Shown piece after piece: positions 3,047-33,602 of a stretch of 64,000 nucleotides of DNA. Under the pieces are notes generated by a model. The model saw only the letters and a program-made list of their open reading frames with translations, was not told the DNA's origin and ran no database searches. A program made the position numbers and the translations under genes. The DNA comes from an uncultured bacterium (GTDB taxonomy: Bacteria > Omnitrophota > Omnitrophia > Omnitrophales > Aquincolibacteriaceae): assembly GCA_964482725.1 (NCBI GenBank), contig CAYZYT010000001.1:186061-250060 (forward strand), read 5' to 3'. Position 1 is the first letter of the stretch, and each line of letters opens with the position of its first letter.

Positions 3047-3685
3047 GTGGAACTTCAGAGATTTCGCAAAACTCCCCTGCTCGGGATCTTGCGCGGGATC
3101 ACACCTGCGGAATTAACGCCTCTGTTTGAGACGATCGCCGCTAGCGGCCTCCAGGCTGTTGAGATCACGATGAACACCGAAGGCGCCGCCGGACTCATTC
3201 AAAAGGCGGTCAAGCAGTACGGCAAGAAGCTCATGATCGGAGCGGGAACTGTCCTGACCCTGAAGGATCTCAAGAGCGCACTTCATGCCGGCGCAACTTT
3301 TATCGTCAGCCCCGTCGTCGTCCCGTCCGTGATCAGCTACTGCGCTAAGCACAAGATCCCTGTTTTCCCGGGCGCGCTGGTCCCTCAGGATATTTATGAA
3401 GCGTGGCAAGCGGGGGCAACGATGGTCAAGGTCTTCCCTGCCGGATGTTTCGGACCCGATTATTTTAAGGAGATCAAGGGCCCGTTCCCCCAGATCGAAC
3501 TCCTGGCGTGCGGCGGAGTCACACCCGCAAACACGAAGGCTTATTTCCGGAATGGCGCCGGAGCGATCGCCGTAGGTTCCAGCATCTTCCGAAAGGAATG
3601 GATCGCCACCAAAAAATTTCATCTCATCCGCAACATGATCCAAACCTATCTCAAAGCACTACCCTCAAAAAGCTCGTCATCCTGA
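3047..3685 (+). CDS. eda: KDPG / 4-hydroxy-2-oxoglutarate aldolase (Eda family).
   Basis: The translation matches KDPG aldolase along its length (ILRGITP, VEITMNT, GAGTVLT, FIVSP, ACGGV). It starts 3 nt after the upstream stop. Confidence 0.8.
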   Translation: MELQRFRKTPLLGILRGITPAELTPLFETIAASGLQAVEITMNTEGAAGLIQKAVKQYGKKLMIGAGTVLTLKDLKSALHAGATFIVSPVVVPSVISYCAKHKIPVFPGALVPQDIYEAWQAGATMVKVFPAGCFGPDYFKEIKGPFPQIELLACGGVTPANTKAYFRNGAGAIAVGSSIFRKEWIATKKFHLIRNMIQTYLKALPSKSSSS

Positions 3686-3745
3686 GCACAGCGAAGGATC
3701 TCGAGCGAGATTCTTCTCCCGCCGTTGGCGGGATCAGAATGACGG
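3675..3745. repeat. Dispersed inverted-termini element, family F1 (CGTCATCCTGAGC...GATCAGAATGACGG), copy 1.
   Basis: The termini are inverted copies of each other. Related copies are at 14881, 25142 and 33538. It lies between the convergent eda and uvrB 3' ends. Confidence 0.55.
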
Positions 3746-3771
3746 GTATTTAAAAACCTTCGTTCGCTTCT

Positions 3772-5787
3772 TCAGCATTTCTTTCGTTTCGGTCGTGCGG
3801 CTTTTTTGAGGATGCTTTCTTTGGGATGTTCCCCTTCGATCCGGCGGATCTCGTCGCGATAACGGGCCGCCTTGTCGAACTCGAGAGCCCGGGCGCAAGC
3901 TTCCATGCGTGTTTTAAGGAACGCGAGGTAGTTCTTGGATTCGTATTCTTTCCCGGATTCATGGACCACGTCATGGACGAATTCCTCGGCTTTTTTCCAT
4001 TTTTCGATCCCGTCCTTGATCTCTTTTTGGATCGAGACCGGCGTGATATGGTGCGCGGTATTGTAATCCCCCTGGATCTTGCGGCGGCGCAAGGTCTCGT
4101 CGATCGCGCGTTTCATGGAATCCGTCACTTTATCGCCATACATGATGACCTTGCCGTTGATGTGCCGAGCCGCCCGGCCCGCGATCTGGATAAGCGAGAC
4201 GTCGCTCCGGAGAAAACCTTCCTTGTCCGCATCGAGCACGATCACCAGGGACACCTCCGGCAGATCCAGGCCTTCACGCAGGAGATTTACGCCGATCACA
4301 CAGTCGTATTTTTTGAGACGGAAATCGCGGAGGATCTCGACACGCTCGAACGCATCAAATTCGGAATGGATGTAATGGACCTTGATCCCGAGCTCCTTGA
4401 GATAGCGGCTCAGATCCTCGGCCATTTTCTTGGTAAGCGTCGTCACGATCGTCCGCTCGGATTTTTCCGCACGCGCCCGGACCTCGGCGATCAGATCATC
4501 GATCTGCCCTTCACTGGGGCGCACTTCGATCTCGGGATCCATGAGCCCCGTCGGGCGAATGACCTGCTCCGCCACGTCTTTCACGCGGCCCGTCTCGTAA
4601 GGCCCCGGCGTTGCAGAAACATAAAGACATTGGTTCAGTTTGGCTTCAAATTCCGGGAATCGAAGAGGCCGGTTATCCAGCGCGGACGGCAGCCGGAACC
4701 CATGATCGACCAGCACTTTCTTGCGCGAGGCGTCGCCGTTGAACATGCCGCGGATCTGCGGCACGCTTTGATGCGACTCGTCAATGATCACCAGAAAATC
4801 CTTGGGAAAATAGTCGATCAGCGTGTAAGGCGTAGAACCCGCAGCCCGGCCCGACAAATGGCGCGAATAATTCTCCACTCCGGAGCAATAGCCGACTTCT
4901 TTGAGCATCTCCAGATCATAGTAGGTGCGCGATTCCAGGCGCTTGGCCTCAAGATCCTGGCCCGCTTCGGTGAGCTTCTTGACATGCTCTTTCATTTCCG
5001 CTTCGATCGACACGATCGCGGCTTCGAGCCGCTCGCCCGGCGTCACAAAATGTTTGGCGGGATAGATCGCGAGCTTCTCGATCTCCCGGATCGCCGAAAG
5101 CTTCACGGGATCGAGAAGCGTGATCCGTTCAATGGATTCGGCTCCAAAATCTATTCGATACGGGTTCTGTCCATAAGAGGGTAAAAGGTCGATCCTGCCA
5201 CCCCTCACGCGAAACGTCCCGCGCCGAAGTTCCGTCTCCACTCTTTCATATTGAAGACTGATCAGACTTGAAAGGAATTTGTCCCGGTCCGCGATCTCGC
5301 CTTTCGTGATCGTGATGAGAAGTCCCTGCCAGTCCTCCGGGGCTCCGAGACCGTAGATACAGGAAACACTCGAGACGATGATGCAGTCTTTGCGCGAGAG
5401 GATGGAGCTGGTCGCGGAAAGGCGCAGGCGGTCGAGATCTTCATTGATCGATGCGTCTTTTTCAATGTAGGTGTCCGTGTGCGGGATATACGCTTCGGGC
5501 TGATAATAATCGTAATAGGACACGAAATATTCGACGGCATTTTCCGGGAAGAATTCCTTGAGCTCGGAATAAAGCTGTGCCGCGAGGGTTTTATTGTGCG
5601 AGATAAGAAGCGTGGGCTTGCCAAGTTGGGCGATCACATGCGCCATCGTGAACGTCTTGCCGGAACCGGTGACGCCTTTGAGGACCTGTTCTTTTTTCCC
5701 CGCCCGGAATCCTTCCACCAGCTGCCGGATCGCCTCGGGTTGATCGCCGCAGGGTTTCATAGAGGAAGTTAATTTAAAATCGCTCAT
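3772..5787 (-). CDS. uvrB: Excinuclease ABC subunit B.
   Basis: Full-length UvrB homology (GDQP, Walker A GVTGSGKT, helicase motifs, C-terminal UvrB/UvrC coiled coil). Start chosen at MSDFKL with AGAGG 7 nt upstream. The ORF-track start at 5802 is an extension. Confidence 0.9.
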   Translation of the reverse strand: MSDFKLTSSMKPCGDQPEAIRQLVEGFRAGKKEQVLKGVTGSGKTFTMAHVIAQLGKPTLLISHNKTLAAQLYSELKEFFPENAVEYFVSYYDYYQPEAYIPHTDTYIEKDASINEDLDRLRLSATSSILSRKDCIIVSSVSCIYGLGAPEDWQGLLITITKGEIADRDKFLSSLISLQYERVETELRRGTFRVRGGRIDLLPSYGQNPYRIDFGAESIERITLLDPVKLSAIREIEKLAIYPAKHFVTPGERLEAAIVSIEAEMKEHVKKLTEAGQDLEAKRLESRTYYDLEMLKEVGYCSGVENYSRHLSGRAAGSTPYTLIDYFPKDFLVIIDESHQSVPQIRGMFNGDASRKKVLVDHGFRLPSALDNRPLRFPEFEAKLNQCLYVSATPGPYETGRVKDVAEQVIRPTGLMDPEIEVRPSEGQIDDLIAEVRARAEKSERTIVTTLTKKMAEDLSRYLKELGIKVHYIHSEFDAFERVEILRDFRLKKYDCVIGVNLLREGLDLPEVSLVIVLDADKEGFLRSDVSLIQIAGRAARHINGKVIMYGDKVTDSMKRAIDETLRRRKIQGDYNTAHHITPVSIQKEIKDGIEKWKKAEEFVHDVVHESGKEYESKNYLAFLKTRMEACARALEFDKAARYRDEIRRIEGEHPKESILKKAARPKRKKC

Positions 5788-5797
5788 AAAACCTCTG

Positions 5798-5872
5798 GCC
5801 ACACGTCACAGGCCACATGCCACACGATGGTTTTTCGTGTGTCCTTGTAGCTTTGTGACATTCCTGTGACCT
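5798..5872. repeat. Structured element family F5 (CACATGCC.CACGA...TGTGTCCTTGT.GC.TTG), copy A, immediately upstream of the uvrB start.
   Basis: About 45 nt are alignable with copy B at 59806..59880, upstream of ispE. It contains an inverted repeat. Confidence 0.5.
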
Positions 5873-5874
5873 GT

Positions 5875-6765
5875 TCAATCGATCAAAAGAGAGAAATCGA
5901 CGGCTTTGACGGAATGGGTGAGAGACCCGACGGAGATAGTGTCCACCCCGGCGGCAGCGAACTTGCGGACATTCTCGAAGGTAATACCGCCCGAGGCTTC
6001 GAGGTTGACCCCGGGAGCTTCCTTGCGTACGATCTCCACCGCCCGCTTGGCTTCTTTAGGCGAAAAATTGTCGAGGAGAATAACCTTGGGACGCAACCCG
6101 ATCGCTTCCCAAAGCTCGCCGAGACTTCGCACTTCAATCTCGAAAGCGCCGGGATGGCGCCGGAGTTTTTTGAGGTCCCCGTGGATCCGGTGGTTCTCTT
6201 TGATAAAGATAAACTCATCAAGCCCCTGCCGGTGGTTCCGGCCGCCCCCCACCTGCACGGCCACCTTTTCCAGCTCACGCCAGATCGGGGTGGTCTTGCG
6301 GGTGTCCAGAATAAACGCCGGATATTTTTTGACACGGTTCACGAATTGACGCGTCTTGGTCGCGATCCCTGAAAGATGCCCGATAAAATTCACCATCGTC
6401 CGCTCGGTCTTGAGGATCGAGCGGATATTTCCTCGCATTTTAAAAACGATCTTCCCCGGTCGGAGCTTACCGCCGTTATGCACCCGGAATTCGAGCTTCA
6501 CTTGGGGGTCGACGATCTTAAAGATCTCCCGGACGAGACGCTCCCCGCAGAAAATGCCGTGTGCCTTGGCGATCACGCGGGCCGTTCCCCGAGCATGCGG
6601 GGGGATCAGCAAATTGGAAGTAACGTCTCCCTGCCCGATGTCCTCATGAAGCGCCTCCTTGAGAAAGCCAAGCGTCCGGCGCGACACCGGCAACGGATGG
6701 CCCGGGAAACCGCCTTTAGAAACTGGCGAGTTGGCTGTGGTAGGATACGAGAAGTTTTTTGGCAT
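5875..6765 (-). CDS. nadC: Nicotinate-nucleotide (quinolinate) pyrophosphorylase.
   Basis: A NadC domain is recognisable across the C-terminal 280 aa. The Met start at 6765 overlaps the valS 3' end by about 50 nt. The upstream part of the ORF-track frame is not NadC-like, and a GTG/TTG start further downstream is possible. Confidence 0.7.
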   Translation of the reverse strand: MPKNFSYPTTANSPVSKGGFPGHPLPVSRRTLGFLKEALHEDIGQGDVTSNLLIPPHARGTARVIAKAHGIFCGERLVREIFKIVDPQVKLEFRVHNGGKLRPGKIVFKMRGNIRSILKTERTMVNFIGHLSGIATKTRQFVNRVKKYPAFILDTRKTTPIWRELEKVAVQVGGGRNHRQGLDEFIFIKENHRIHGDLKKLRRHPGAFEIEVRSLGELWEAIGLRPKVILLDNFSPKEAKRAVEIVRKEAPGVNLEASGGITFENVRKFAAAGVDTISVGSLTHSVKAVDFSLLID

Positions 6766-9577
6766 CGGCAAGTTTCTCTTTCTCTTTTTCCAGGATCTCT
6801 TTCGGAGCTCTTTCGGCGAACGACGGGTTCTCAACTTTTTTACGGATAGTCTCGATCCACTGCTCTGTTTCCAGGATCTTTTTCTGGAGACGTTTTCTCT
6901 CCTCTTCCGGGTCCAGAACTCCCTCGAGCAGGATAAAGGCATCAAAGGCTGCAAAGGAGTTGGCCGCCACGGCGCCCTTTTTCTCGAATTCACGCACACA
7001 AGAAAGTTCCGCGAGCCGTCCCAGCACTTTTACCTCACGCTCGAAAGCGCGCAGGGTCTCCAACGTTCCCTGCTCCTTGCAAACAACGACCGCTTTGAGT
7101 TTATCGGTCGGAGAGATCTTGTAGCGGACCCGGAGATCCCGGAGACCGATCACCGCTTCCTGCAAGAGCCCGATGGCTTTCTGAGCTTCCCCATCGTGGA
7201 ATTTCATTTCCTCTTCGTGCGGCCACGGCGCGAGCATGATGGATTCGGGCCATGGACCCGATCCAACCTGGCAGGTCGAATTAATCCGACCTGCCAGGTT
7301 GGATGGGTGGGCTTTTTGCTTAAAGGTCTGCCAGATCTCTTCGGTGATGAACGGCATAAAAGGATGCAGAAGCCTCAGCATCCGCTCACAGACAAAGAAT
7401 AGGACCTTCTGCGTCTGCAATTTGAGAGCGGCATCCTCCGACAGGACCATGGGTTTCGCGAGCTCGATATACCAATCGCAGAAATCATCCCAGACAAAGT
7501 GATAAAGCTCGGTCGCCGCCTGGGCAAGGCCGAATTGGGAAAGATGCTTTTCGATCATCGCGGCTTTTGCCTCAAGCTGTGACAGGATCCAGCGGCTCGG
7601 AAGCGACAACTTGATGTTTTTGAATTGCGCCGGATCCGTGGAGGCTTCCTGAAACCCTTCGAGCTGCATCAGGACGAACCGGCAGGCGTTCCAGACCTTG
7701 GTGGCAAAATTGCGCCCCATCTCGAACTTCTCCCGGGAAAGATAAACATCCTGCGCGGAAAGCATCACGAGGCTGTAGCGGAGGGCGTCGGCCCCCATCT
7801 CCTCGATCACTTCAAGCGGATCGATGGAATTCCCGAGCGACTTCGACATCTTCAGCCCGCTCGCCGCGCGCACCGTGCCATGGATATTAATTTGGGTAAA
7901 CGGGACCTCCCCCATGAATTCGAGCCCGGCCATGATCATGCGCGCCACCCAGAAAAAGATGATCTCTGGAGCGGTGACAAGCGCCGAGGTCGGATAGAAT
8001 TTCTTCAGATCCTCGGTTTTCGCGGGCCAACCCAGCGTCGAGAACGGCCAGAGCCAGGACGAGAACCAGGTGTCGAGAACGTCCTCGTCGCGTTTGATGT
8101 CCTTTGAACCGCAGTGGGGACATTGAGTGATATCTTCACGAGACACAATCGCTCCGTCAGACTGGAGACTAGAGACTGGAGACTGGCGCTTCTGGTCTGT
8201 GGTCTTTCCAGTTTGCGACTGCGCGCATTTTGCGCAGTACCAAACTGGAAGCCGATGCCCCCACCAGATCTGGCGCGAGATGCACCAATCGCGGATCCCG
8301 TGAAGCCAGTTCAGATAAACCTTGGTCCAGCGGTCCGGAAAGAAAACTGTTTTCCCCTGTTCGTGGGCCTTCAGCGCCTTCTCGGCCAAAGGCTGCATCT
8401 TCACGAACCACTGTTTGGAAAGATACGGCTCCACGACGGTGTCGCAGCGATAGCAATGGCCGACCGCGTGCAGATGCGAGTCGCGCCGGACAAAAAGCCC
8501 CTGCGCTTCCAGGTCCTGAAGGATCTTTTTACGCGCTTCAAACCGGTCCATGCCTTGATACGGTCCGCCGTGCTCGTTGATCTTCGCGTCCGGCGTCATC
8601 ACATTGATCTGCTCGAGATTGTGCCGGTGCCCCATCGCAAAGTCATTGGGATCATGCGCCGGCGTCACTTTCACAATGCCGGTCCCGAATTCGGGGTCCA
8701 CAAAATCATCCGCGATCACCGGGATCTCGCGGTTCACAAGCGGCAGCAGGACTTTCTTCCCGATCAGGTGTTTGTAGCGGGGGTCGGTCGGATGCACTGC
8801 GACCGCGGTATCGCCCAACATGGTTTCGGGACGGGTCGTCGCGACCACAACGTGGTCGATGCCGAGTTTGTCGAGTACAGGGACAGGTCCGCTTTTGCTT
8901 GCAGGACCTGTCCCTGTGACGATCGGATACTTGAGGTGATAAAGCCCACCTTGCATGTCCTTGTGGGCGGCCTCTTCATCGGAAAGCGCTGTCTGGCAAC
9001 GAGGACACCAATTGATGATGTAGTTCCCGCGATAGATCAGTCCACGCTCGTAAAGCGTGACGAACGCCTCGCGCACCGCTTTGGAAAGGCCTTCATCCAT
9101 GGTGAACCGCTCACGGGTCCAGTCGCAGGAAGCGCCGAGCCGGCGGAGCTGGCGCGTGATGGTCGAGCCGTGCTCGTGCTTCCATTTCCAGACTTCTTCG
9201 AGGAATTTTTCGCGGCCGACATCCCAGCGAGTCTTTTTTTCTTTGGCGAGCTTCTTCTCAACCACATTCTGCGTCGCGATCCCCGCGTGATCGACCCCCG
9301 GCACCCAGAGCGTGTCCCGGCCCTTCATGCGGTTCCACCGGATGAGAATATCCTGGATGGAACTGTTGAGCGCGTGGCCCATATGCAGGATGCCTGTGAC
9401 ATTGGGCGGAGGGATGACGATAACATAAGACTTGGGACTTGAGACTTGAGACTTGAGCTTCGGATCTCTGGGCTCTGGGCTCTGGTCACTCGTCGGTTTG
9501 AAGTAGCCCTTCGCTTCCCAGAGGGTGTACCACTTCGTCTCGACTTCTTTGGAGTTGTATTGTTTGTCCAATTCCAT
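6716..9577 (-). CDS. valS: Valyl-tRNA synthetase, carrying three in-frame repeat/palindrome insertions.
   Basis: Class I motifs (PPPNVTG.LHMGHA, KMSKS), a zinc knuckle and a C-terminal coiled coil. It is 953 aa, slightly longer than typical. Confidence 0.9.
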   Translation of the reverse strand: MELDKQYNSKEVETKWYTLWEAKGYFKPTSDQSPEPRDPKLKSQVSSPKSYVIVIPPPNVTGILHMGHALNSSIQDILIRWNRMKGRDTLWVPGVDHAGIATQNVVEKKLAKEKKTRWDVGREKFLEEVWKWKHEHGSTITRQLRRLGASCDWTRERFTMDEGLSKAVREAFVTLYERGLIYRGNYIINWCPRCQTALSDEEAAHKDMQGGLYHLKYPIVTGTGPASKSGPVPVLDKLGIDHVVVATTRPETMLGDTAVAVHPTDPRYKHLIGKKVLLPLVNREIPVIADDFVDPEFGTGIVKVTPAHDPNDFAMGHRHNLEQINVMTPDAKINEHGGPYQGMDRFEARKKILQDLEAQGLFVRRDSHLHAVGHCYRCDTVVEPYLSKQWFVKMQPLAEKALKAHEQGKTVFFPDRWTKVYLNWLHGIRDWCISRQIWWGHRLPVWYCAKCAQSQTGKTTDQKRQSPVSSLQSDGAIVSREDITQCPHCGSKDIKRDEDVLDTWFSSWLWPFSTLGWPAKTEDLKKFYPTSALVTAPEIIFFWVARMIMAGLEFMGEVPFTQINIHGTVRAASGLKMSKSLGNSIDPLEVIEEMGADALRYSLVMLSAQDVYLSREKFEMGRNFATKVWNACRFVLMQLEGFQEASTDPAQFKNIKLSLPSRWILSQLEAKAAMIEKHLSQFGLAQAATELYHFVWDDFCDWYIELAKPMVLSEDAALKLQTQKVLFFVCERMLRLLHPFMPFITEEIWQTFKQKAHPSNLAGRINSTCQVGSGPWPESIMLAPWPHEEEMKFHDGEAQKAIGLLQEAVIGLRDLRVRYKISPTDKLKAVVVCKEQGTLETLRAFEREVKVLGRLAELSCVREFEKKGAVAANSFAAFDAFILLEGVLDPEEERKRLQKKILETEQWIETIRKKVENPSFAERAPKEILEKEKEKLADAKKLLVSYHSQLASF
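7263..7302. repeat. 40-bp near-perfect palindrome (CCAACCTGGCAGGTCGAATT|AATCCGACCTGCCAGGTTGG, one mismatch) inside valS coding sequence, in-frame.
   Basis: The reverse complement of the second half equals the first half except at one position. It encodes an extra peptide (..SNLAGRINSTCQVG..) near the conserved SIMLAPWP region. Confidence 0.7.
8158..8248. repeat. Composite insertion in valS: heptamer tandem repeats (GAGACTR x4, TGGTCTG x2) plus an imperfect palindrome of about 41 bp (CCAGTTTGCGACTGCGCGCATTTTGCGCAGTACCAAACTGG).
   Basis: It sits between the two Cys pairs of the ValRS zinc knuckle and encodes QSQTGKTTDQKRQSPVSSLQSDG. It is homologous to the element at 9428..9490. Confidence 0.6.
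9428..9490. repeat. Heptamer tandem-repeat insertion near the valS N-terminus (GACTTGR x4 then CTCTGGG x3).
   Basis: Encodes SDQSPEPRDPKLKSQVSSPKS between FKP and the PPPNVTG/HIGH region. It is the same repeat type as 8158..8248. Confidence 0.6.
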
Positions 9578-9586
9578 AAATACCGG

Positions 9587-9657
9587 AAGGAGGAGGGAGG
9601 ATGGCGGAGGGCGTCAAACCAGGCTTGTCGCCATCCTCCCTCCGCCTTCCGCCATCC
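9587..9657. repeat. GGATGG/CCATCC-rich hairpin element, family F2, copy 1. A 12-bp stem GGGAGGATGGCG / CGCCATCCTCCC flanks a loop of about 22 nt.
   Basis: Lies between the valS start and the cimA stop. Related copies are at 16449 and 23999. Confidence 0.55.
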
Positions 9658-11216
9658 TATCCTTTGTGTAATTTATATTCGATCGCTTCGACGAGGGCTT
9701 TCCAGCTGGCTTCGATGATGTTTTCGTGGACACCGACCGTGGTCCAGGTTTTTTGTTTATCCTGGAATTCGATAAAGACGCGTACCTTCGCCGCCGTTCC
9801 GGCCTCGGAATTGACGACGCGCACTTTATAATCCGTCAGGTGGATCTCATCGATCACGGGATACGTTTTGGCGAGCGCTTTCCGCAGCGCGGAATCGAGC
9901 GCGTTGACCGGCCCGTCCCCGTCCGCCGATTCAAAATGTTCGACGCCCTGAGCCGTGACTTGCACGTCTGCGATCGAGCGTGGGCTTCCGGCGCCGATCT
10001 CTTCGGTGCGCACGGAAACCGCGCCGGGTTGGAAGAACGGCTTGTATTTACCGAGGACCCGCTGCACGAGAAGCTCAAAACTCGCTTCCGCAGCTTCAAA
10101 TTGATACCCTTCGTATTCCAGGCGCTGGATCTCGGCGAGGATCTTCTTGGCCTCAGAAGAATCTTTCTGGAATTTCATTTCAAGTTCCTCGGCCTTGATC
10201 ATGATATTGGTCTTCCCCCCGAGCTCGGAGACAAGATACCGGCGGTAATTCCCGAGAGCTTTGGGCTCCACGTGCTCGTAGGTCTTGGCGTTCTTTACCA
10301 TGGCGTTGATGTGCACGCCGCCTTTGTGCGCGAACGCGGAGCGGCCCGTGAACGGCTGATTATTGACCAGAGGCATATTGCAAACCTCGGCCACATAATG
10401 CGAGAGCTGGGTCAGCTCCTTCATTTTCTTTGCGGGAAAGCACGGAACCTTCATCTTGAACTGGAGGTCCGGGATGATGCTTGCAAGGTTCGTGTTCCCG
10501 CAGCGCTCGCCGTAACCGTTGATCGTTCCCTGCACGAGAACGCATCCTTCGCCCACCGCCTGGATGGAATTGGCGACCGCAAGCTCGGAATCATTATGAC
10601 AGTGGATGCCGAGCGGCGTTTTCACGGAGCGCTTTACCTTCTGGATCGCGTGACGCACTTCATGCGGCAGGCTTCCGCCATTCGTATCACAGAGTGAAAG
10701 ATTGTTGGCGCCCGCTTTCGCGGCCTGCTGAAGCGTTTTCAGCGCGTATTCGGGATTCGCCTTGAACCCGTCAAAAAAATGTTCGGCATCATAGATCACT
10801 TCGATCTTCCGGTCCTTGAGGTACGCGACCGTTTCATAGATCATCAGGAGATTTTCTTTGAGCGTCGTCCGGAACACTTCAGTCACGTGCATGTCCCAGG
10901 ATTTCCCGAACACCGTCACGACCTTGGTGCCGGCTTCGAGCAGCGCTTTGATCTGCGAGTCTTCTTTGACTTTCATGTGGGCGCGGCGCGTGGAGCCGAA
11001 TGCCGCGATCTTGGAGTGTTTGATCCCGGCCTTCTTGACCGCGAGGAAGAATTCCATATCCTTCGGATTCGAACCCGGCCATCCGCCTTCGATGTAATGG
11101 ACACCGAACTGATCGAGCCGCTTCGCGATCAGCACCTTATCGTGGGAGGACAGACTGATCCCCTCAGCTTGTGAGCCATCACGGAGTGTTGTGTCGTAGA
11201 AAAGAATCTTCTTCAT
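9657..11216 (-). CDS. cimA: (R)-citramalate synthase (CimA clade of the LeuA/HMGL family).
   Basis: Motifs LRDGSQ, IEGGWPGSNPKD and HxH, plus a C-terminal LeuA-dimer regulatory domain. Start chosen at MKKILFYDTT. The ORF track extends to 11237. Confidence 0.7.
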   Translation of the reverse strand: MKKILFYDTTLRDGSQAEGISLSSHDKVLIAKRLDQFGVHYIEGGWPGSNPKDMEFFLAVKKAGIKHSKIAAFGSTRRAHMKVKEDSQIKALLEAGTKVVTVFGKSWDMHVTEVFRTTLKENLLMIYETVAYLKDRKIEVIYDAEHFFDGFKANPEYALKTLQQAAKAGANNLSLCDTNGGSLPHEVRHAIQKVKRSVKTPLGIHCHNDSELAVANSIQAVGEGCVLVQGTINGYGERCGNTNLASIIPDLQFKMKVPCFPAKKMKELTQLSHYVAEVCNMPLVNNQPFTGRSAFAHKGGVHINAMVKNAKTYEHVEPKALGNYRRYLVSELGGKTNIMIKAEELEMKFQKDSSEAKKILAEIQRLEYEGYQFEAAEASFELLVQRVLGKYKPFFQPGAVSVRTEEIGAGSPRSIADVQVTAQGVEHFESADGDGPVNALDSALRKALAKTYPVIDEIHLTDYKVRVVNSEAGTAAKVRVFIEFQDKQKTWTTVGVHENIIEASWKALVEAIEYKLHKG

Positions 11217-11244
11217 GTTTTCCCTATAACAACCCAATCAATTT

Positions 11245-11309
11245 GTGTCAGGGTGTCAAAGTATCAGAGTTTCAAAACTTTGACACTTTGATACTCTGAG
11301 ACTTTGATA
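11245..11309. repeat. Intergenic element family F3 (GTGTCAGGGTGTCAAAGTATCAGAGTTTCA...), copy X.
   Basis: A near-identical unit is present in inverted orientation at 61485..61544. It lies between lysC and cimA. Confidence 0.55.
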
Positions 11310-12527
11310 CTATCTTTTGCCGAGTCCGAATGCCTGGTGGATGGCGCGGGCGGCAAGCTTGCCTTTGTCGCCGGCGACGACGACCGAGATCTTGATCTCG
11401 GAAGTGGAGATCATATCGATATTGATCTTGTTCTTGGCCAGGGTCGAGAACATCTTGGACGCGATCCCGGAGTGCGAGCGCATGCCGATCCCGACGATCG
11501 AGACTTTCGCGACATTCTCGTCACAGACGACGTCTTTGACGCCGAGCTTCTTGGCGTTTGTCTTCACGACCTTCATAGCTTTCACAAGCTCGTTCTTGAA
11601 AACAGTGAAAGAAATGTCCGTGGAATTCGTGTTGGTCTTGTTCTGGATGATCATATCCACGTTCACGTTCGCGTCCGCCAGGGTCTGGAACACCTTGGCC
11701 GCCACGCCCGGACGGTCCGAAACCCCGAACAGGGTGATCTTGGCTTCATCTTCCGCTAACGCAACACCGCTGACGACGACTTCTTCCATTTTCTTGTTCT
11801 CCTTTGTAATAAGAGTTCCTTTGACTTCCTTATGGGAATTGCAGACCCAAATGGGCATGTTGAACTTTTTTCCGACTTCGATCGAGCGCGAGTGCATGAC
11901 CTTCGCCCCAAGCGACGCGAGCTCCAGGATCTCATCGTAAGTGGCGACATCCATCTTTGTCGCCTCCGGGATCACGCGAGGGTCTGCCGTATAGATGCCG
12001 TCCACGTCCGTATAGATCTCGCAATGTTTTGCCTTGAGCGCCACGGCAAGCGCCACGGCCGTCAGGTCGGAACCGCCGCGGCCGAGCGTTGTGATCTCGC
12101 CGGAGGGCGTCTGGCCCTGGAACCCGGCCACGATCACGATCTTCCCAGCAGCGAGGGCCTTTTTAATGCGATCCGCGCTGATATTCTGAATGCGGGCCTT
12201 GCTGTGAAATTCGTCGGTAATGATCCCCACCTGTGAACCTGTGAAAGAAACCGCCTCATGTCCCAATTTATGGACCGCCATCGCCAAAAGCGCGATCGAG
12301 ACCTGTTCCCCCGTAGAAAGAAGCATATCCATCTCACGTTCTTTGGGGTCCTTATTGATCTGATCGGCAAGCGTGATGAGATCATCGGTCATATCGCCCA
12401 TGGCGGAGACCACCACGACGACCTTGTTCCCGGCCTTTTTGGTTTTGATGACGCGCTGGGCCACTCTTAAGATTTTTTCCGCGTTGGCGACCGAAGAGCC
12501 GCCGTATTTTTGAACGATCAGTGACAT
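11310..12527 (-). CDS. lysC: Aspartate kinase (two C-terminal ACT domains).
   Basis: Motifs KYGGSSV and VVVVSAMG, with ACT repeats. Confidence 0.85.
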
Positions 12528-12576: not shown

Positions 12577-13776
12577 TTACTTACTCATAAAGAACGGCAT
12601 CAACTCCGTAGTTTTGCTAAATTTCACTTCCGAAGTCTTGGCCGCGATCTCCGAGAACCGCTCGATCTCATCGGCCACGATGTTCTTGCCGGTCACGGCA
12701 AACGGGACGCTGTCGCGGACGATCTCTTTCATTTTCCAAAGCGTCGCGTGCCCCGGAGTGACCAGCAGGCGCGAATCCTTGGCGCGTTCAAGATATTTCC
12801 GGATCTTCGAAAGCACAAAAAAATCGATCCCCTCGATCGCCGAGATCTTATTTTTTACTTCTCCGGTCCGCGCCGCTTCCTCAGGGGTGTGGAGATGAAG
12901 ACACACAAAATCTTTTTCTTCGAGCGCATCAATCGCCACCTTGGAGATCTTGTCATAAAAAGCCGCGGGCTCTTCGCCCTCCTCCTTGACCTCCATGACC
13001 GTAAGCCCCGCCACACGCCCCAGACCCTTGGCGTATTCGCGCGCGGCAACCATCGCGCCTCCCGAGACGTCAAAACATTCCCGAAAAGATTTTAAGACCG
13101 GCTTCATGCCCTGCCCCCAAAGCCAGACCATATTCGCCGGGTTCTCGCCGAGATCCACTCGCACTTGATTGATCTCATGGTCCTGTAAAAGAAGCCTGGC
13201 ATCGTACATCAGCTTGCGCATCAATTCTTCGCCCGGGCCCTTCGGCAGCACATCTTCGATCTTTTCGCCGATCACGCTCTCCGGCGCCTGCGTCTTCGCG
13301 GACAAGGCCTCAAATCCGTTCGCATCCTTGATCACCGCGATGTGCCGGTGCCCGGAGCCTGAGAAGAATCGGACAAAATCGCTCGCAACCTTTTTGTTCA
13401 AAAAATTGACAAGCGCTTTCGCTTCCTTGGTGGTCAGAGCCCCGGCGGTCGGATCGGCCAAGGTCCCGGCAGCTTCCGTGATAAAATTCATGCAGAACGC
13501 TACTTCCTTGTCATCGAGCGTCAATTCTTTGTCGGCGGCCTCAAGCGGCCCGCGACCCGTGTAAAGTTTCGCCGCGTCATAGCCTAAAAGATTGAACAGG
13601 CTTACATCTGCGCTAGGCGGCAGGCGATCGGACACAAGCTTTGCCGTCCCCACTTTGCCGTTTTTTGCAAAAAAGTTAAGGTTCGGCACCTTGGCCGCTT
13701 CCAGAGGAGTTTTTCCTCCGAGCTCTTCGGTCGGATGGTCCGCTGCGCCTGCAAGCACCACAACAATGGATTTCAT
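12577..13776 (-). CDS. apgM: Cofactor-independent phosphoglycerate mutase, archaeal type (ApgM family).
   Basis: N-terminus ([10 protein letters not shown]) and length match archaeal-type iPGM. Its start overlaps the thrC stop by 4 nt. Confidence 0.7.
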
Positions 13777-14843
13777 CGGATGACCTCCTTGACGGCATCA
13801 AGCGTGGACGAGACCTTCGTGACCGGATCTTCAAAACTGAGCGCGAAATCAGGGTCCTTCAACCCCGCCCCCGTAAGCGTGATCACGATGCGGGAGCCTT
13901 CTTTGAAAAATCCTTTTTTAGCAAGGTTGATAACCCCTGCCACCGGCGCAACGCTGGCCGGCTCCGCGAAAACGCCTTCGCGCTCCGCAATAAAACGGTA
14001 CGCCTTCGTGATCTCTTCATCCGTTACCATGTCGATCAAACCGCCCGATTCGTCACGAGCAGCCACCGCACCCTGCCAACTCGCGGGATTCCCGATACGG
14101 ATCGCGGTGGCAAGGGTCTCCGGCTTTTCCACCGGATGCCCCAGCACGATCGGCGCCGAACCCGCGGCCTGAAAACCGAGCATTTTGGGCAGCACCTCGG
14201 ACTTCCCTGCTTTTTTATATTCCTTGTAGCCTCTCCAATAAGCCGTGATATTACCGGCATTCCCGACCGGGATCGCGTGATATTCCGGAGCATCGCCAAG
14301 GTCGTCGACGATCTCGAACGCTGCCGTCTTCTGGCCTTCGATGCGATACGGATTGATAGAATTCACCAACGTGATCCTGCCATCCGCGGTCAGTTCCTTG
14401 ACCAACTCCAGCGCCTTATCGAAATTCCCCTCGATCATGATCACCTTCGCGCCGTAGCGATACGCCTGCAAAAGTTTTCCCTTCGCGATCTTCCCTTCCG
14501 GGATCAGCACAAAACACTTCAGGCCGCACCGGCACGCGTACGCCGCGGCCGAGGCGGACGTATTCCCGGTCGAGGCGCACATCACGGCCTTCGATCCGGC
14601 TTCGACGGCCTTGGAGATCGCCATCGTCATCCCGCGATCCTTGAACGACCCCGTCGGATTCAGGCCTTCGAACTTGTAATAGATCCGGATGTTCTTCAGC
14701 CCCAGTTCTACGGGAAGAGCTTCCGCAAGAATGAGCGGCGTATTGCCTTCATTGAGCGAAATGATCGGAGTCTTGTCCGTGACCGGGAGATATTCCTGGT
14801 AACGCTCGATGATCCCGATCTTCTTAACTGCGTATTTTCCCAT
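13773..14843 (-). CDS. thrC: Threonine synthase.
   Basis: PLP-lysine motif GSFKDRG and full-length ThrC homology. Confidence 0.85.
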
Positions 14844-14880
14844 AAAAACCGACTTTCTATTTTTTCGTTAAAATTTTATG

Positions 14881-14947
14881 GTCATCCCCGAATGTCTGAG
14901 TCGGAGGTCCCCTCTATGGATTCCCGCTTTCGTGGGAAGGACAGAAT
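14881..14947. repeat. Family F1 element, copy 2 (GTCATCCCCGAA...TGGATTCCCGCTT...GGGAAGGACAGAATG).
   Basis: Alignable with 25142..25219. Lies between the hom stop and the thrC start. Confidence 0.5.
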
Positions 14948-16249: not shown

Positions 16250-16448
16250 ATGGCTCCTGCGCAAACGTCCTAAGTTCCGTAGTGATAAAACCTTAACAAA
16301 GACCGGATCGCCCTGATCTTCCATTTTTTGAAATAATAAGGTACTCGGGACCACCCAGACTTCCCTGTTAATTTCCCCAACAAAAGTCGGCGTAGTATAT
16401 CGTGCCCTTGATTAAAAATCAAACAGCCCTTGCGCCGGATATCGGATA

Positions 16449-16507
16449 ACGGATGGAGGATGGCGTAAAACTAAAGACCCGGCTCCATCCACCCTCCTCC
16501 ATCCGTC
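16449..16507. repeat. Family F2 element, copy 2 (CGGATGGAGGATGG ... CCATCCACCCTCCTCCATCCG).
   Basis: Inverted GGATGG-rich arms, upstream of hom. Confidence 0.5.
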
Positions 16508-16602
16508 ACCCCTTTGAAATTCTCGCTTTCTTTACTTTAAAACCTGTTTATGTATACTATCTTCGCTTGCACTCCTCAATGAGCTAAATAAGGGGCCTAC
16601 AA

Positions 16603-24189: not shown

Positions 24190-25131
24190 ATGACAAACTC
24201 TCTCAAAGTCGGCGTGGTCGGCGTAGGACATCTCGGCAAGGAACATGCGCGGATCTATCGCGACCTCCCTGAAGCGGAACTGGTCGGGATCTCAGACCTG
24301 GATCCCGCCAAAGAGGACAAAGCCAAGGAGCTCGGAACTACCTATTACAGAGATTTCCGGGATCTTATCGGAAAAGTCGATGCCGTGAGCATCGCGACGC
24401 CCACCTCCACCCATTACGCGGTCGCCAAGGAATTCCTGAAAGCCGGCATCCATACCCTCATTGAAAAACCGATCACCTTGAAGCTGACCGAAGCGGACGA
24501 GCTTCTCGAGCTTGCCCGTCAAAAAAATCTGTCCCTCCAGGTCGGGCATATCGAACGACACAATCCCGGATTCAAACGCGTCCGGGAGATCGCAAAAAAT
24601 ATCCGTTTCCTTGAGATCCACCGCCTCGGACCTTTTACGGGACGCATCAACGACTGTGGCGTCGTCCTTGATCTCATGATCCATGACCTGGATATTGTGA
24701 TGGGGCTCGTCGATTCCCCCGTTGCAGGCTTCGACGCCCTCGGCGTCAATGTCCTTACACCCTTCGAGGACATCGCGAACGTGCGCCTCAAGTTCAAGAA
24801 CGGCGCGGTCGCCAACATCACCGCCTCACGTCTGACATTCGAAAAGCAGCGAAAAATCCGCATTTTCCAGGAAGATGCTTACATTTCGCTCGATTATGGC
24901 GCTCAGACCGGCAAGATCATTCGTAAGTTCGGGAACGAAGTTATTCAGGAGGAGGTGTCGATCGAAAAAGCCGAACCTCTCAAAGAAGAGCTGAAGTCCT
25001 TCCTGAAGGGGATCAGCACGGGTCAGAGCATCGGAAAACCCGATACGGCAGCCCGCGACGCCCTTGCGATCGCGCTCGAGATCGCCCGCAAGATCCAGGC
25101 CGAGCATCCCAAACCAAGCGCGAAGGTCTGA
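24190..25131 (+). CDS. Gfo/Idh/MocA family NAD(P)-dependent oxidoreductase.
   Basis: N-terminal Rossmann motif VGVVGVGHLG and the EKP motif. Adjacent to lpxB. Confidence 0.8.
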   Translation: MTNSLKVGVVGVGHLGKEHARIYRDLPEAELVGISDLDPAKEDKAKELGTTYYRDFRDLIGKVDAVSIATPTSTHYAVAKEFLKAGIHTLIEKPITLKLTEADELLELARQKNLSLQVGHIERHNPGFKRVREIAKNIRFLEIHRLGPFTGRINDCGVVLDLMIHDLDIVMGLVDSPVAGFDALGVNVLTPFEDIANVRLKFKNGAVANITASRLTFEKQRKIRIFQEDAYISLDYGAQTGKIIRKFGNEVIQEEVSIEKAEPLKEELKSFLKGISTGQSIGKPDTAARDALAIALEIARKIQAEHPKPSAKV

Positions 25132-25141
25132 TTTTCCATTT

Positions 25142-25219
25142 GTCATCCCCGAAGGCTTCTATCGGGGATCCAGGATGAAACCCGCTCTGGATTCCCGCTT
25201 AAAACATGCGGGAATGACA
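25142..25219. repeat. Family F1 element, copy 3 (TGTCATCCCCGAAGG...CGGGAATGACAGC).
   Basis: Inverted termini GTCATCCC / GGGAATGAC. Lies between the oxidoreductase gene and the lpxB start. Confidence 0.5.
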
Positions 25220-25243: not shown

Positions 25244-26383
25244 ATGTCTAAAAAAATCTTCCTCGTTGCCTGCGAAGCCTCGGGCGATCTTCACGGCGCT
25301 CATCTTATTTCTGAGATCCAAAAGCTTGCTCCGGATACATTTTTTTGCGGCGTCGGCGGTGCCAAGATGCAGGCGATGGGCATGCAGATCTTTAGCGACA
25401 TGACAAAGATCTCGGCGCTAGGCCTAGGCGACGTGCTCCGGAATTATTTCAAATATCTCAAGATCTTCAACGAAACTCTCAAAAACATCCGGAACGAAAA
25501 ACCGGACGCCGTGATCCTGATCGATTCTCCGGCTTTCAATCTCCGGCTCGCCAAAAAACTCCCCGCAGCCGCGCCTCTTCTCTATTATATCTCCCCGCAG
25601 CTTTGGGCCTGGGGAAAGCGACGGATCCATATCGTCAAGAAGCACATCCGTGAAATGCTCGTGATCCTTCCGTTCGAAAAAGATTTCTACGAAAAAGAAG
25701 GCGTGGCCGTGAAGTTCGTGGGGCATCCCTTACTTGACGCGATTCCCGAGCTTCCGGCGCCGGCGGTCCTCCGGGCGAAGATCGGCATCGCTCCGGATCA
25801 AAAAGCGATCGGCCTTTTTTCGGGTTCAAGGGAAAAAGAGGTGAAGCGCATCCTGCCGGTCATGCTCCGCGCGGCGGCTCATCTCCTGCAGGATTTTCCG
25901 GAAGCGGTCTTTTTTATTTCAAAATCCTCGAACGTGCGCCCCGAAGTCTATGAGGAACTGCTTCAGGCATCGCCTGTCAAAGTGGAATGTCCGTCCGCGC
26001 CGTTCTATGAACTTGTGAAGGCTATGGATTTTGCCTACGTTGCTTCCGGGACCGCGACGCTTGAGACCGCGCTCATCGGAACGCCGTTCTTTCTTCTTTA
26101 TAAGGCCAGCTGGTCCACCTATTTCCTGGGAAAGCACCTGATCAAAGTCCCCTACCTCGGGCTGGTGAACCTCCTTGCCGATACCCGCGTGATCCCGGAA
26201 TTCATCCAGCAAGACGCCCATCCCGAGACACTCGCCCACGAGGCCAGAGTCTTCCTCCGGAGCCCGGAACTTCAGGAGAAAATGAAAGCGGAATTCCGCG
26301 AAGTCAGAGAGAAACTCGGAGAAAAAGGCGCCAGTGCCCGCGCCGCGAAAGAAGTCTGCGATTTCTTGGCCCAAAGACCGTAA
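25244..26383 (+). CDS. lpxB: Lipid-A-disaccharide synthase.
   Basis: The N-terminus MSKKIFLVACEASGDLHG and full-length LpxB homology. The ORF track over-extends to 25064. Confidence 0.85.
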   Translation: MSKKIFLVACEASGDLHGAHLISEIQKLAPDTFFCGVGGAKMQAMGMQIFSDMTKISALGLGDVLRNYFKYLKIFNETLKNIRNEKPDAVILIDSPAFNLRLAKKLPAAAPLLYYISPQLWAWGKRRIHIVKKHIREMLVILPFEKDFYEKEGVAVKFVGHPLLDAIPELPAPAVLRAKIGIAPDQKAIGLFSGSREKEVKRILPVMLRAAAHLLQDFPEAVFFISKSSNVRPEVYEELLQASPVKVECPSAPFYELVKAMDFAYVASGTATLETALIGTPFFLLYKASWSTYFLGKHLIKVPYLGLVNLLADTRVIPEFIQQDAHPETLAHEARVFLRSPELQEKMKAEFREVREKLGEKGASARAAKEVCDFLAQRP

Positions 26384-26391
26384 ACTATAAA

Positions 26392-26798: not shown

Positions 26799-26849
26799 GG
26801 CCAGTAATTTAGCATCGAACTTTAATAAAAACCAGTCAAATCCATGCTG

Positions 26850-30163: not shown

Positions 30164-30233
30164 AAAAAACTCTCCTTTTTATTCCTTTTAAAATGCGTGT
30201 CTCTGCCGGACCGCGTCCTCAAAGCCGAACCTT

Positions 30234-33200
30234 CTACTTACTCTTCAGGCCTTGATAATCCTGGATCGACCGGACATCCAGTTCATTATCCTTGACGGCC
30301 TGGAGTCCCCGGAGCGCCGCGCGCGCGGCGCTTAGCGTGGTAATACACGGGATACTGAAGGCGACCGCGAGGGACCGGATCTTTCCTTCATCTAGCATCG
30401 GACCTTTCCCGCTCGGCGTATTGATAATGAGGTCCATTTTCTTATTCCGGACCCAATCCCCGATATTCGGGCTCCCTTCCGTGATCTTCAAGATCTCCTG
30501 GACGGGCACCCGGTGATCTTTCAGCACCTGGGTGGTCCCCCGGGTCGACACGACCTTGAACCCGAGGCGATGGAATTCCCTGGCGATTTCGGCAATCTTG
30601 GATTTGTCGGAATCCTTCACGCTGATAAAAACCGTACCCTTCCGCGGGATGCAGCTCATCGCCGCATCCTGGGATTTATAGAAGGCCCTCCCGAAATCCT
30701 TGTCGATCCCCATCACCTCTCCGGTGGATTTCATTTCCGGAGAAAGAATGATATCGACCCCCGGGAACTTCACGAACGGAAAGACGGATTCTTTGACGGC
30801 GACATGTTTCGGAATGATCTCTTCCGTGAATTTCAATTCTTTAAGCGTTTTACCTGCCATAAGCTGGGCGGCAAGTTTCGCCAGCGGGACCCCGATCGTT
30901 TTACTCACGAACGGCACCGTCCGCGATGCGCGGGGGTTCACTTCCAGACAAAAGATCTGGTCCTTCTGGATCGCATATTGAACATTCATAAGCCCCACCA
31001 CGCCGAGTTCCTTCGCGATCTGCTTGGTCTTCTGAACGATCTCTTCCACGATCTCACGCGAAATGGAGAACGGAGGAATGACGGACGCGCTGTCCCCGGA
31101 ATGAATACCGGCTTCCTCGATATGTTCCATGACAGAGCCGACGACCGAGATCTTTCCGTCCGAAATAAGATCGACATCCATTTCGGTCGCATCTTCCAGG
31201 AACTTATCGATCAACACAGGATGGTCGCCACTGGCCTCCACCGCCTGTTTCATGTATTTTTTGAGCGAAGTCTGGTCGTAGGCGATCTCCATAGCGCGTC
31301 CCCCCAATACATAGGACGGCCGGACCACGACCGGGTAACCGATCCGTTTGGCAACCTCGCAGGCCTCCTCGAGACTTTTGGCGATCCCGTTCGCAGGCTG
31401 GGATAAGCGTATTTTCTTTAAAAGTTTTTTGAATTTGTCCCGGTCTTCCGCCCGATCGATCGCCTCCACGGAAGTTCCGAGGATCCGCACACCGTTCGCC
31501 TTTAGCGCCTTGGCAAGATTAAGCGGCGTTTGGCCGCCGAGCTGCAAGATAACCCCCAACGGTTTTTCGTTCTCATAGATATTGAGGACATCTTCCAGCG
31601 TAAGCGGTTCGAAGAAAAGTTTATCCGAGGTGTCATAATCCGTACTCACGGTCTCAGGGTTGGAGTTGACCATGATCGTTTCATAGCCCATTTTCTTGAG
31701 CGCCAGCACCGCGTGGACACAACAATAATCGAATTCGATCCCCTGTCCGATGCGGTTCGGCCCGCCCCCGAGGATCATGATCTTCTTTTTCCGGCTGGGG
31801 TTCGATTCGTCCTCGTCTTCATAAGTCGAATAAAAGTACGGGGTGTACGCCTTGAATTCAGCGGCGCAGGTATCCACCAATTTATAGACCGGTTTAATAC
31901 CCAAAGCCTTACGCTTTTTCCTCACGTCTTTTTCCTGAAGTCCCCAAAAGAAAGCCAGCTGCCGGTCGGAGAATCCATATTGCTTAGCCTTGCGCATGAG
32001 CGCATCCTGCTGCTTCGGTTTTCCCTGCGCTGCAAGCAATTCCCCTTCAAGATCAATGATCTGCTTGAGTTGCGCCAGGAACCACGGATCGACCCCTGTT
32101 TTTTCATAGATCTCCTCGGTGGTGTACCCGGCCAGATAAGCATATTTCAGATAAAAGATCCTGTCTTCCCGTGGGACCTTCGCACACGCAAAGATCTTCT
32201 CACGAAGGGTCTTGTCCAGCGGGACGGTCTTGAGAAATTGAAGATAAGATTCGCGCGTTTTAAGCGTGAGGTCGAAGATCTTATCCTTGCCGTCGCCCCC
32301 GAACCCGAAGCGCTTCGTTTCAAGCGATCGCAAGCCCTTTTGAAACGCCTCCTTGAACGTGCGGCCGATGGACATTACCTCGCCCACGGACTTCATTTGG
32401 GTCGATAAGCGGTCATCCACGCCCTCGAATTTTTCAAAGGCAAAGCGCGGGATCTTGACCACGCAGTAGTCGATCGAAGGTTCGAACGAGGCCGGAGTGT
32501 ATTTGGTAATATCGTTGGGGATCTCATCCAACGTCAACCCGACCGCGAGTTTGGCCGCGAATTTTGCGATCGGAAATCCCGTCGCCTTGGAGGCAAGGGC
32601 TGAAGATCTGGAAACGCGCGGATTCATCTCAATGATGACCATGCGACCCGTTTTGGGGTCAACCGCGAACTGAACGTTCGAACCCCCGGTCTCGATCCCG
32701 ATCTCGGACATGACTTTGCGTGCGGCATCGCGCATCCGCTGGTACTCCCGGTCCGTCAAGGTCTGGGCCGGCGCCACGGTAATGGAATCACCGGTATGAA
32801 CTCCCATCGGATCCAGATTCTCGATCGAACAAATGACCACAAAGTTGTCGTTCGTGTCACGCATCACTTCCAGCTCATACTCTTTCCATCCGACGATCGA
32901 TTCTTCGATCAAGATCTCATGCACACGGCTGTAATCCAGCCCTGTGCGCGCCGTAGTCCGGAGCTCTTCAATATTATGGCAAACTCCGCTCCCGGAACCT
33001 CCCAGCGTAAAACTCGCCCGAACGATCACCGGATAGCCGATCTTTTCGGCCACCTTCTCGGCTTCCTCCAGAGAGTAGGCAAAATCACTTTTAGGGAGAT
33101 CCAGGCCGATCTTTTGCATGGCCCGCTTGAACTCCTCACGATTCTCGGCTTTTTTGATCGCCTCGTATTTCGCGCCGATCATTTCGACATGATGGCGCTG

Positions 33201-33524
33201 GAACACTCCCGCTTCATAGGCCTCGACCGCAAGGTTCAGTCCGGTCTGCCCGCCCATGGTCGGCAGCACCGCGTCGGGTTTTTCTTTGATGATCACTTTT
33301 TCAAGAAATTCCACGGTGAGCGGCTCGATGTAGGTCGCGTCCGCGAGATCCGGGTCGGTCATAATGGTCGCAGGATTTGAATTGATGAGCGCCACCTTGT
33401 AGCCCTCTTCCTTCAAGGCCTTCACGGCTTGAGCGCCCGAATAATCAAACTCGCAGGCCTGACCGATGATGATCGGCCCGGACCCGATGATGAGGATTTT
33501 TTTGATGTCGGTTCTTTTAGGCAT
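30234..33524 (-). CDS. carB: Carbamoyl-phosphate synthase large subunit.
   Basis: Two ATP-grasp halves, an oligomerisation domain and an MGS-like C-terminal domain. Homology along the whole length. Confidence 0.95.
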
Positions 33525-33537
33525 AATTAAATTTTTC

Positions 33538-33602
33538 CCGTCATTCTGAGGGCAAAGCCCGAAGAATCTCGTGTAAGATCCTTCGCTACGCTCAGGATGA
33601 CG
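33538..33602. repeat. Family F1 element, copy 4 (CCGTCATTCTGAGGGCAAAGCCCGAAGAATCTC ... GATCCTTCGCTACGCTCAGGATGACG), between carA and carB.
   Basis: The two halves are inverted copies of the unit CGTCATYCTGAG..AGCGAAGRATC. Confidence 0.55.

Follow-up and report, generated by a model that had tools for sequence, protein, structure and literature searches.

We analysed a 64,000-nt (64 kb) stretch of DNA, called the window here, from an uncultured bacterium of the candidate phylum Omnitrophota (assembly GCA_964482725.1, contig CAYZYT010000001.1, positions 186,061 to 250,060 of the forward strand). Four short hairpin-forming elements lie in this window, which we relate below to the repeats recognised by the Ssn nucleases of Neisseria. 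Copy 1 (3675..3745) is located between the convergent genes eda, encoding KDPG aldolase (3047-3685, + strand), and uvrB (3772-5802, - strand). Copy 2 (14880..14945) separates hom, encoding homoserine dehydrogenase (14954-16354, - strand), from thrC, a PALP family gene (13773-14843, - strand). Copy 3 (25141..25219) is found between a GFO/IDH oxidoreductase gene (24190-25131, + strand) and lpxB (25244-26383, + strand), and copy 4 (33539..33602) between carA (33606-34748, - strand) and carB (30234-33524, - strand). All four elements are intergenic and 65-79 bp long. A preliminary description of this stretch had placed the four copies within ~2 nt of these positions, and the flanking genes it had named (eda|uvrB, hom|thrC, oxidoreductase|lpxB and carA|carB) agree with the Pfam assignments.

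Each element contains one oriented unit twice, the two copies placed tail-to-tail with the GTCAT heads pointing outward, and each unit is composed of a YGTC head, an AT…AT palindrome and a C tail. In copy 1, the (+) unit spans 3675-3702 (CGTCATCCTGAGCACAGCGAAGGATCTC) and the (-) unit 3707-3745 (CCGTCATTCTGATCCCGCCAACGGCGGGAGAAGAATCTC), and the unit tails together make the palindrome GATCTCG-AG-CGAGAT at the centre of the element. The (+) unit of copy 4 covers 33539-33570 (CGTCATTCTGAGGGCAAAGCCCGAAGAATCTC), followed by a (-) unit at 33575-33602 (CGTCATCCTGAGCGTAGCGAAGGATCTT) with a GCGTAGC mini-hairpin apex. Copies 1 and 4 share the consensus GTCATYCTGAG-(variable apex)-CGAAGRATCTC, which we call type A. 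Copies 2 and 3 belong to a second subfamily, type B, with the consensus GTCATYCCCG-(loop)-CGGGRATCCAG. Copy 3 is an intact type B doublet resembling the Neisseria repeat introduced below, with the (+) unit at 25141-25173 (TGTCATCCCCGAAGGCTTCTATCGGGGATCCAG) and the (-) unit at 25187-25219 (TGTCATTCCCGCATGTTTTAAGCGGGAATCCAG). Copy 2 is decayed: its (+) unit lies at 14880-14912 (GGTCATCCCCGAATGTCTGAGTCGGAGGTCCCC) and its (-) unit at ~14916-14945 ((CT)GTCCTTCCCACGAAAGCGGGAATCCAT), the latter reading GTCCTTCCCAC…GCGGGAATCC. The three intact doublets each pair one C-G unit with one T-A unit. The elements had been described as one family with inverted termini. They are real and their symmetry is indeed inverted; they fall into two subfamilies, and what had been taken for a body with terminal repeats is a doublet of whole units. 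Likewise, copy 4 had been seen as an almost perfect inverted duplication, which holds for the pairing of its units and not for their apices (GGGCAAAGCCC versus GCGTAGC).

Pattern searches indicated that these units are far from chance occurrences. The type A pattern GTCATYCTGAN{3,25}GAAGRATC has four matches in the window (3676-3700(+), 3709-3743(-), 33540-33568(+) and 33577-33601(-)) against 0.00 expected from 100 dinucleotide shuffles, and the type B pattern GTCATYCCCGN{3,20}CGGGRATCC has two (25142-25171(+) and 25189-25218(-)), again with 0.00 expected from dinucleotide shuffles. A fuzzy search of the 64 kb gave no further copies, which leaves eight units in the window. When folded as DNA, six of the eight units were intact and adopted the same shape, i.e. 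four unpaired nucleotides (YGTC), a perfectly paired AT…AT stem and an unpaired C, whereas both units of copy 2 were degenerate. The inner stems differ among the window units (GC/GC, GGC/GCC and TCCCGCC/GGCGGGA), and the canonical GCGNAGC apex is present in one of the eight, at 33575-33602. Two short-read (Logan) contigs from two different runs (L001 and L002), the only ones found with the exact carA, end at 33542, 4 nt inside copy 4, as is expected for a multi-copy repeat. These breaks suggest that copy 4 belongs to such a repeat, in line with the multi-copy nature guessed earlier, and the picture of dispersed, intergenic, hairpin-forming repeats whose oriented units stand in inverted pairs, a layout familiar from repetitive extragenic palindromes (REPs) and bacterial interspersed mosaic elements (BIMEs), was also borne out.

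A repeat of the same build has been described in Neisseria. Chenal et al. (Nat Commun 2025; PMC11893778) reported the Neisseria Transformation Sequence (NTS), CGTCATTCCCGCGMAVGCGGGAATCYRG, as a member of a broader class termed Ssn-related motifs (SRM). The partner of the NTS repeat is SsnA, a single-domain GIY-YIG nuclease of ~95 amino acids, which binds and cuts the repeat as single-stranded DNA (ssDNA) only, on one strand and just 5' of the motif; cleavage needs the three nucleotides 5' of the palindrome, binding needs the C just 3' of it, and the RNA form of the repeat is not bound (PMC11893778). According to the same study, ssn genes typically carry the repeat on both sides, and 81% of the genomes with more than 200 motifs have an ssnA homologue while 19% have no detectable one (PMC11893778). 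The window units have the same oriented CGTC head, AT-stem palindrome and C tail as the NTS and, like it, are intergenic and, as the contig breaks suggest, multi-copy. Six of the eight carry the complete oriented motif of head, palindrome and 3' C, and these six intact units keep the positions critical for SsnA, namely the trinucleotide preceding the palindrome and the C that follows it. The (-) unit of copy 3 has the same head, stem and tail as the NTS, differs from it only in the first base and a longer loop, and alone among the window units fits the published SRM pattern, HGTCWYN(0-2)YYVSBRHN(0-5)WNVSBRGN(0-2)RNCYNB. Type B is in essence the NTS repeat of Neisseria. The palindromic core of the NTS is also known as dRS3 (ATTCCC-N8-GGGAAT); type B units carry the same ATTCCC…GGGAAT arms, with a spacing of N13 in the window instead of N8. 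Type A departs further from the NTS: its stem is only 5 bp long (ATYCT/AGRAT) and leads into tandem G·A mismatches and then a GC-GNA-GC mini-hairpin.

Since the published pattern misses type A, the association of this variant with GIY-YIG genes was tested from scratch. In a forward test, open reading frames (ORFs) located up to 1 kb from type A units at 119 genome loci were clustered without bias. A single recurrent family emerged, a GIY-YIG protein of ~90-115 amino acids (Pfam PF01541, E = 5e-12 to 4e-16), and three of the four strong cases had type A units on both sides of the gene, only a downstream unit being detected at the fourth (L094). In the reverse test, metagenome contigs were searched for relatives of this protein, which returned 80 loci. 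A type A unit was present within 250 bp of the GIY-YIG gene in 74 of the 80, and units stood on both sides in 58 loci (both flanks could be inspected in 64 of the 80). The density of units was 229 per 36.9 kb near the GIY-YIG gene versus 59 per 194 kb farther away, a ~20-fold excess. Neither type B units nor strict SRM matches were found near the GIY-YIG genes of these 80 metagenome loci. The SRM pattern misses all 229 of the 229 type A units near GIY-YIG genes, and it is therefore narrower than its intended class.

For comparison with the Neisseria nuclease, we used a gonococcal GIY-YIG ORF (MQPAVYILASQRNGTLYIGVTSDL…) that sits among 16 canonical NTS repeats and is taken as a candidate SsnA orthologue from this repeat context, not by comparison with the published SsnA sequence. 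The chromosome that carries it (L252, NZ_CP119140.1, 2.17 Mb) is a complete Neisseria gonorrhoeae chromosome mislabelled in a plasmid collection. The type A-linked proteins share 41% identity with this candidate over 88 of its 94 residues (hhalign probability 99.6%). Type A thus has the NTS architecture with another stem, and the alignment indicates that its partner nucleases form a GIY-YIG clade with homology to the SsnA candidate, encoded by small single-domain genes in the same repeat-gene-repeat arrangement. Type A is placed in the SRM class because of this shared architecture and the association with GIY-YIG genes.

The same neighbourhoods bear on the idea, raised in the preliminary description, that the elements are REPs or REP doublets (REPINs) whose mobility depends on a REP-associated tyrosine transposase (RAYT), like those of Pseudomonas or the BIMEs of E. 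coli. The likeness is considerable: in both systems an oriented head is joined to an imperfect palindrome, inverted pairs form one larger hairpin, the elements are intergenic and lack a target-site duplication, and recognition as ssDNA is probable. REPs, however, have a GTAG head and depend on a Y1/HUH transposase, whereas the units studied here start with YGTCAT and have a GIY-YIG nuclease as their associated protein. The neighbours at the 119 loci gave the small single-domain GIY-YIG family as the sole recurrent one and no transposase, in a clustering that included neither a dedicated Y1-transposase profile search nor a systematic annotation of the window ORFs, and the 74 of 80 GIY-YIG loci that carry type A units argue in the same direction. 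We therefore regard a RAYT partner as very unlikely.

The distribution of type A was determined with the exact pattern CGTCATYCTGAGN{3,10}CGAAGRATC. It occurred in at least 119 stretches from species-representative genomes, almost each from a separate genome, and these span well over a dozen bacterial phyla, including Patescibacteria, Acidobacteriota, Bacteroidota, Omnitrophota, Melainabacteria, Chloroflexota, Verrucomicrobiota and Planctomycetota as well as Gemmatimonadota, Bacillota, Campylobacterota, Elusimicrobiota and others. Exact type A units, doublets included, were also present in 41 stretches of predicted viral contigs from IMG/VR (L003-L043), for example close to portal and protease genes in five related contigs. 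Beside the type A units of viral contigs no GIY-YIG gene was detected, in a clustering dominated by these five related phage contigs. Phages may be carriers or spreaders of type A repeats. A variant unit, GTCATTCTC…GAGAATCC, forms doublets alongside type A (L003 3057-3123 and L008 7684-7750), and type B-like units co-occur with type A in ~10% of cases. Variant and type B-like units share contigs with type A, and several motif variants therefore occur per genome, as in the window.

Among the collected loci, close pairs of units were arranged tail-to-tail in 68 of 108 cases, and isolated doublets mostly measured 65-90 bp; units were also found singly, in tandem and head-to-head. The tail-to-tail doublet is the usual genomic form, of which the window elements are typical. 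The base before GTCAT was a pyrimidine in 94% of 635 units. The pairing of one C-G with one T-A unit seen in the window was not a preference elsewhere (20 mixed versus 22 same-type doublets). No target-site duplication was detected in 71 isolated doublets, at offsets of 0-4 and lengths of 2-5. These data bear on the other origin that had been suggested, that of classical miniature inverted-repeat transposable elements (MITEs), i.e. deletion derivatives of insertion sequences (ISs) with a DDE transposase and GTCAT…ATGAC terminal inverted repeats. Inverted termini, a length of 65-79 bp, dispersal over intergenic sites and presence or absence between relatives would all suit a MITE. The reading fails because a target-site duplication is lacking and because the supposed termini are free-standing, complete self-folding units that also occur outside doublets; in addition, no transposase-like family recurs beside the units. 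MITEs are the least credible of the explanations considered here, and we give this one hardly any weight. Correia (NEMIS) elements of Neisseria are likewise small intergenic inverted-repeat elements, co-transcribed with neighbouring genes; their terminal repeats measure 26 bp and they have a TA duplication, whereas doublets of the window type show none.

The larger set of units also allowed us to ask which feature of the repeat is maintained. Among 275 type A units collected at 160 loci, the pair formed by the sixth base and its predicted partner was T-A in 131 units, C-G in 129, A-T in 3, G-C in 3 and non-Watson-Crick in 9. The type A search pattern did not require these two bases to pair. 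When only units with Y and R at that stem position were counted, 260 of 267 were Watson-Crick, with T-A and C-G about even. The inner stems of type A vary in sequence and length and yet remain complementary. These figures are evidence that hairpin pairing is under selection. The commonest apex of type A is GCGNAGC (GCGAAGC in 36 units, GCGCAGC in 25, GCGGAGC in 13 and GCGTAGC in 6), and one apex form of the NTS is GCGAAAGC. Both are exact matches to d(GCGNAGC) / d(GCGNNAGC), described as an 'extraordinarily stable mini-hairpin DNA' motif (PMC13037366), a stability that is not reflected in standard folding parameters. By itself, this mini-hairpin denotes a physicochemical motif and not a genetic element; here it forms the tip of a longer hairpin that would, by analogy with the NTS, be recognised by a protein. 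Because the apex of both repeat types is a DNA mini-hairpin, ssDNA can be argued to be the biologically relevant form. The covariation, the variable stems, the DNA mini-hairpin apex and the failure of SsnA to bind RNA together favour a function at the DNA level.

A role in mRNA stability or termination had been proposed as well; in a broader form of this reading, the elements would be regulatory RNA hairpins under selection, such as intercistronic stabilisers, processing sites, terminators or attenuators. Copies 1, 3 and 4 are predicted to be very stable as RNA (-29 to -43 kcal/mol) and fold better than shuffled sequences on both strands (z between -3.7 and -5.9); copy 2 folds no better than shuffles (z = -1.1 and +0.1). 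Three copies are located within probable, co-directional operons and would be transcribed, and copy 1 stands between convergent genes, a sensible place for a terminator. A terminator scan, however, called none of the four elements, no T-run follows any of them, and the combination of GC-rich stem and T-run that marks an intrinsic terminator was found at 0 of 4; this candidate was rejected. An Rfam scan of the whole window returned two tRNAs only and no family at the elements. None of the four elements is present in the closest sequenced relative (see below), and they are therefore not conserved regulators of these operons. Further points against an RNA role are that the genes beside the 25-nt motif are unrelated to each other and come from well over a dozen phyla, that the GCGNAGC apex is a DNA-specific stability motif, and that, according to the published work, SsnA fails to bind its repeat as RNA. 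A dedicated terminator or stabiliser function is thus unlikely; an incidental effect of the elements on operon mRNAs is possible.

The insertion history of the four sites was reconstructed by comparison with related contigs. Homologues of CarA and of citramalate synthase place the organism, which is also present in the sequencing runs SRR12261223 and SRR12261224, in the Candidatus Omnitrophota; its exact carB product was not found on record. The closest sequenced relative (L255) is collinear with the window, with 94-96% amino acid identity in the compared proteins and ~82% nucleotide identity, and all four sites are empty in it. There, uvrB and eda overlap by 4 nt, the GFO/IDH gene and lpxB overlap by 4 nt according to the gene table, and carA and carB are 1 nt apart; at the copy-2 site, both this contig and L257 read hom TAA, 4 nt and the ATG of thrC. 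The copy-4 site is also empty in L254, L163 and L164, whose carA is 96% and 94% identical, and on the contig with the 96% identical carA the two car genes overlap. Five more distant relatives likewise have an empty copy-4 site, with carA-carB spacings of -8 to +21 nt. No convincing units were detected in ~190 kb of the relatives' DNA. Insertion of the elements postdates the divergence of this genome from its closest sequenced relative. Comparison of filled with empty sites shows no clean target-site duplication and does not fix the exact insertion ends, given that the relatives are ~18% diverged and that AT-rich extra sequence is present in each. Gene ends are affected at two sites: the eda stop is a TGA within the element head GTCATCCTGA (window 3683-3685), and the end of carA (window 33603-33620) reads …EKNV before the stop versus …EKNQKSQ in the relatives, where the carA stop abuts carB in one case and overlaps the carB start in another. 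Between nadC and uvrB, the closest relative has two GGDEF (MASE8) genes (L255 15319-18066) that are absent from the window, in which this interval is only ~100 nt long (5780-5878).

The filled and empty sites are relevant to a further explanation, according to which the elements are relics, decaying units of a past invasion that have no active nuclease and now serve as neutral spacer. In its favour, copy 2 has clearly decayed, the window is devoid of an ssn gene, and a detectable ssnA homologue is lacking from the 19% of motif-rich genomes mentioned above (PMC11893778). On the other side, intact units predominate (six of eight), their stems perfectly paired and their head and tail conserved, and the elements are younger than the split from a relative with ~82% nucleotide identity. 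We consider it improbable that they are mere relics.

Taken together, we think it probable that the four elements are tail-to-tail doublets of Ssn-related hairpin motifs that behave as Ssn-dependent passengers. Several observations weigh against this assignment. Seven of the eight window units, including all four type A units, fail the SRM search pattern, such that the inclusion of type A in the class is made in spite of a missing pattern match. The 64 kb window contains no ssn/GIY-YIG gene or remnant, as searched by regular expression, phmmer and an 81-sequence hidden Markov model (best E = 1.6). The stems of copy 2 are broken, and this copy may be inert. The junctions in the window measure 81-110 nt and are larger than the doublets, the difference being 9-35 nt of AT-rich filler that is outside the model. 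Around type A ssn genes, the heads-outward layout is the most frequent one, but only modestly so (22 of 57 versus 14 expected), a weak signal for an IS-like geometry. Finally, to our knowledge GIY-YIG nucleases are not known as transposition catalysts. Compared with the described NTS/SRM repeats, the setting also differs in that the host is a member of the Candidatus Omnitrophota, that the doublets are regularly tail-to-tail and that no ssn gene is located within the window; by analogy, such a gene would be expected elsewhere in the Omnitrophota genome.

Based on the assignment as Ssn-related doublets, we propose the following mechanism. Each unit would act as an oriented ssDNA hairpin with an unpaired 5' YGTC, an AT…AT stem and a 3' C. 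By analogy with SsnA of Neisseria, a small nuclease of the Ssn GIY-YIG family (CDD cd10448), whose gene would lie in another part of the genome, would bind this hairpin only when it folds in single-stranded DNA, a state that may arise in replication, repair or transformation intermediates, and would cut immediately 5' of the head. As the units within a doublet have opposite orientations, either strand would offer exactly one cleavable unit and, following the published strand specificity, be cut outside the doublet. Cleavage of these particular copies by Ssn is thus presumed from the Neisseria system, and that Ssn drives the spread of the elements is our conjecture. The elements would be non-autonomous, REPIN-like passengers of a unit-ssn-unit cassette, which spread into intergenic junctions without target-site duplication. 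They would have invaded the Omnitrophota lineage after its split from the closest relative, separating overlapping or coupled gene pairs, and any RNA hairpin effects on operon mRNAs would be a by-product. More tentatively, the doublets could be the non-autonomous form of a cassette that moves via a GIY-YIG ssDNA nuclease, with the near-invariant 25-nt type A and its DNA mini-hairpin apex spreading together with the nuclease across well over a dozen phyla and into phage contigs; we regard this part of the proposal as possible and rather less likely to be right than wrong. If true, it would represent an undescribed transposition route that leaves no target-site duplication and inserts even between overlapping, translationally coupled genes.

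The window contains other intergenic inverted repeats that are distinct in sequence from the elements described above. A second repeat occurs in two copies (9584-9658 and 16444-16511) with purine-rich arms (GGAGGAGGGAGGATGGCG … CGCCATCCTCCCTCC) of 23 nt that are 96% complementary and enclose a 22-28 nt loop. A third is also present twice (11245-11310 and 61485-61545), with the arms GTGTCAAAGTATCA / TGATACTTTGACAC and reiterated CTTTGATAC words. A further inverted repeat at 59805-59874 has 25-nt arms (AAAGACACAAAGCCACAAGGACACA / TGTGTCCTTGTGGCCTTGCAACTTT), and a near-perfect palindrome of 50 nt (7258-7307) lies within a large ORF (6716-9577, - strand).

For genome annotation, elements of this kind should be labelled as Ssn-related motif doublets and not as terminators, REPs or MITEs, and it should be kept in mind that they create spurious ORF tails, as exemplified by the eda stop inside copy 1. 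The type A variant, which the published search pattern fails to detect, is very widespread and tightly linked to a clade of GIY-YIG proteins. The four clean filled-versus-empty sites document insertion into junctions at which genes overlap or are nearly adjacent. The additions to the known class are therefore the type A variant, the doublet as its standard form and the four clean insertion sites. Without overturning the current understanding, these results carry the Ssn discovery of 2025 into a candidate phylum and add a new motif variant to it.

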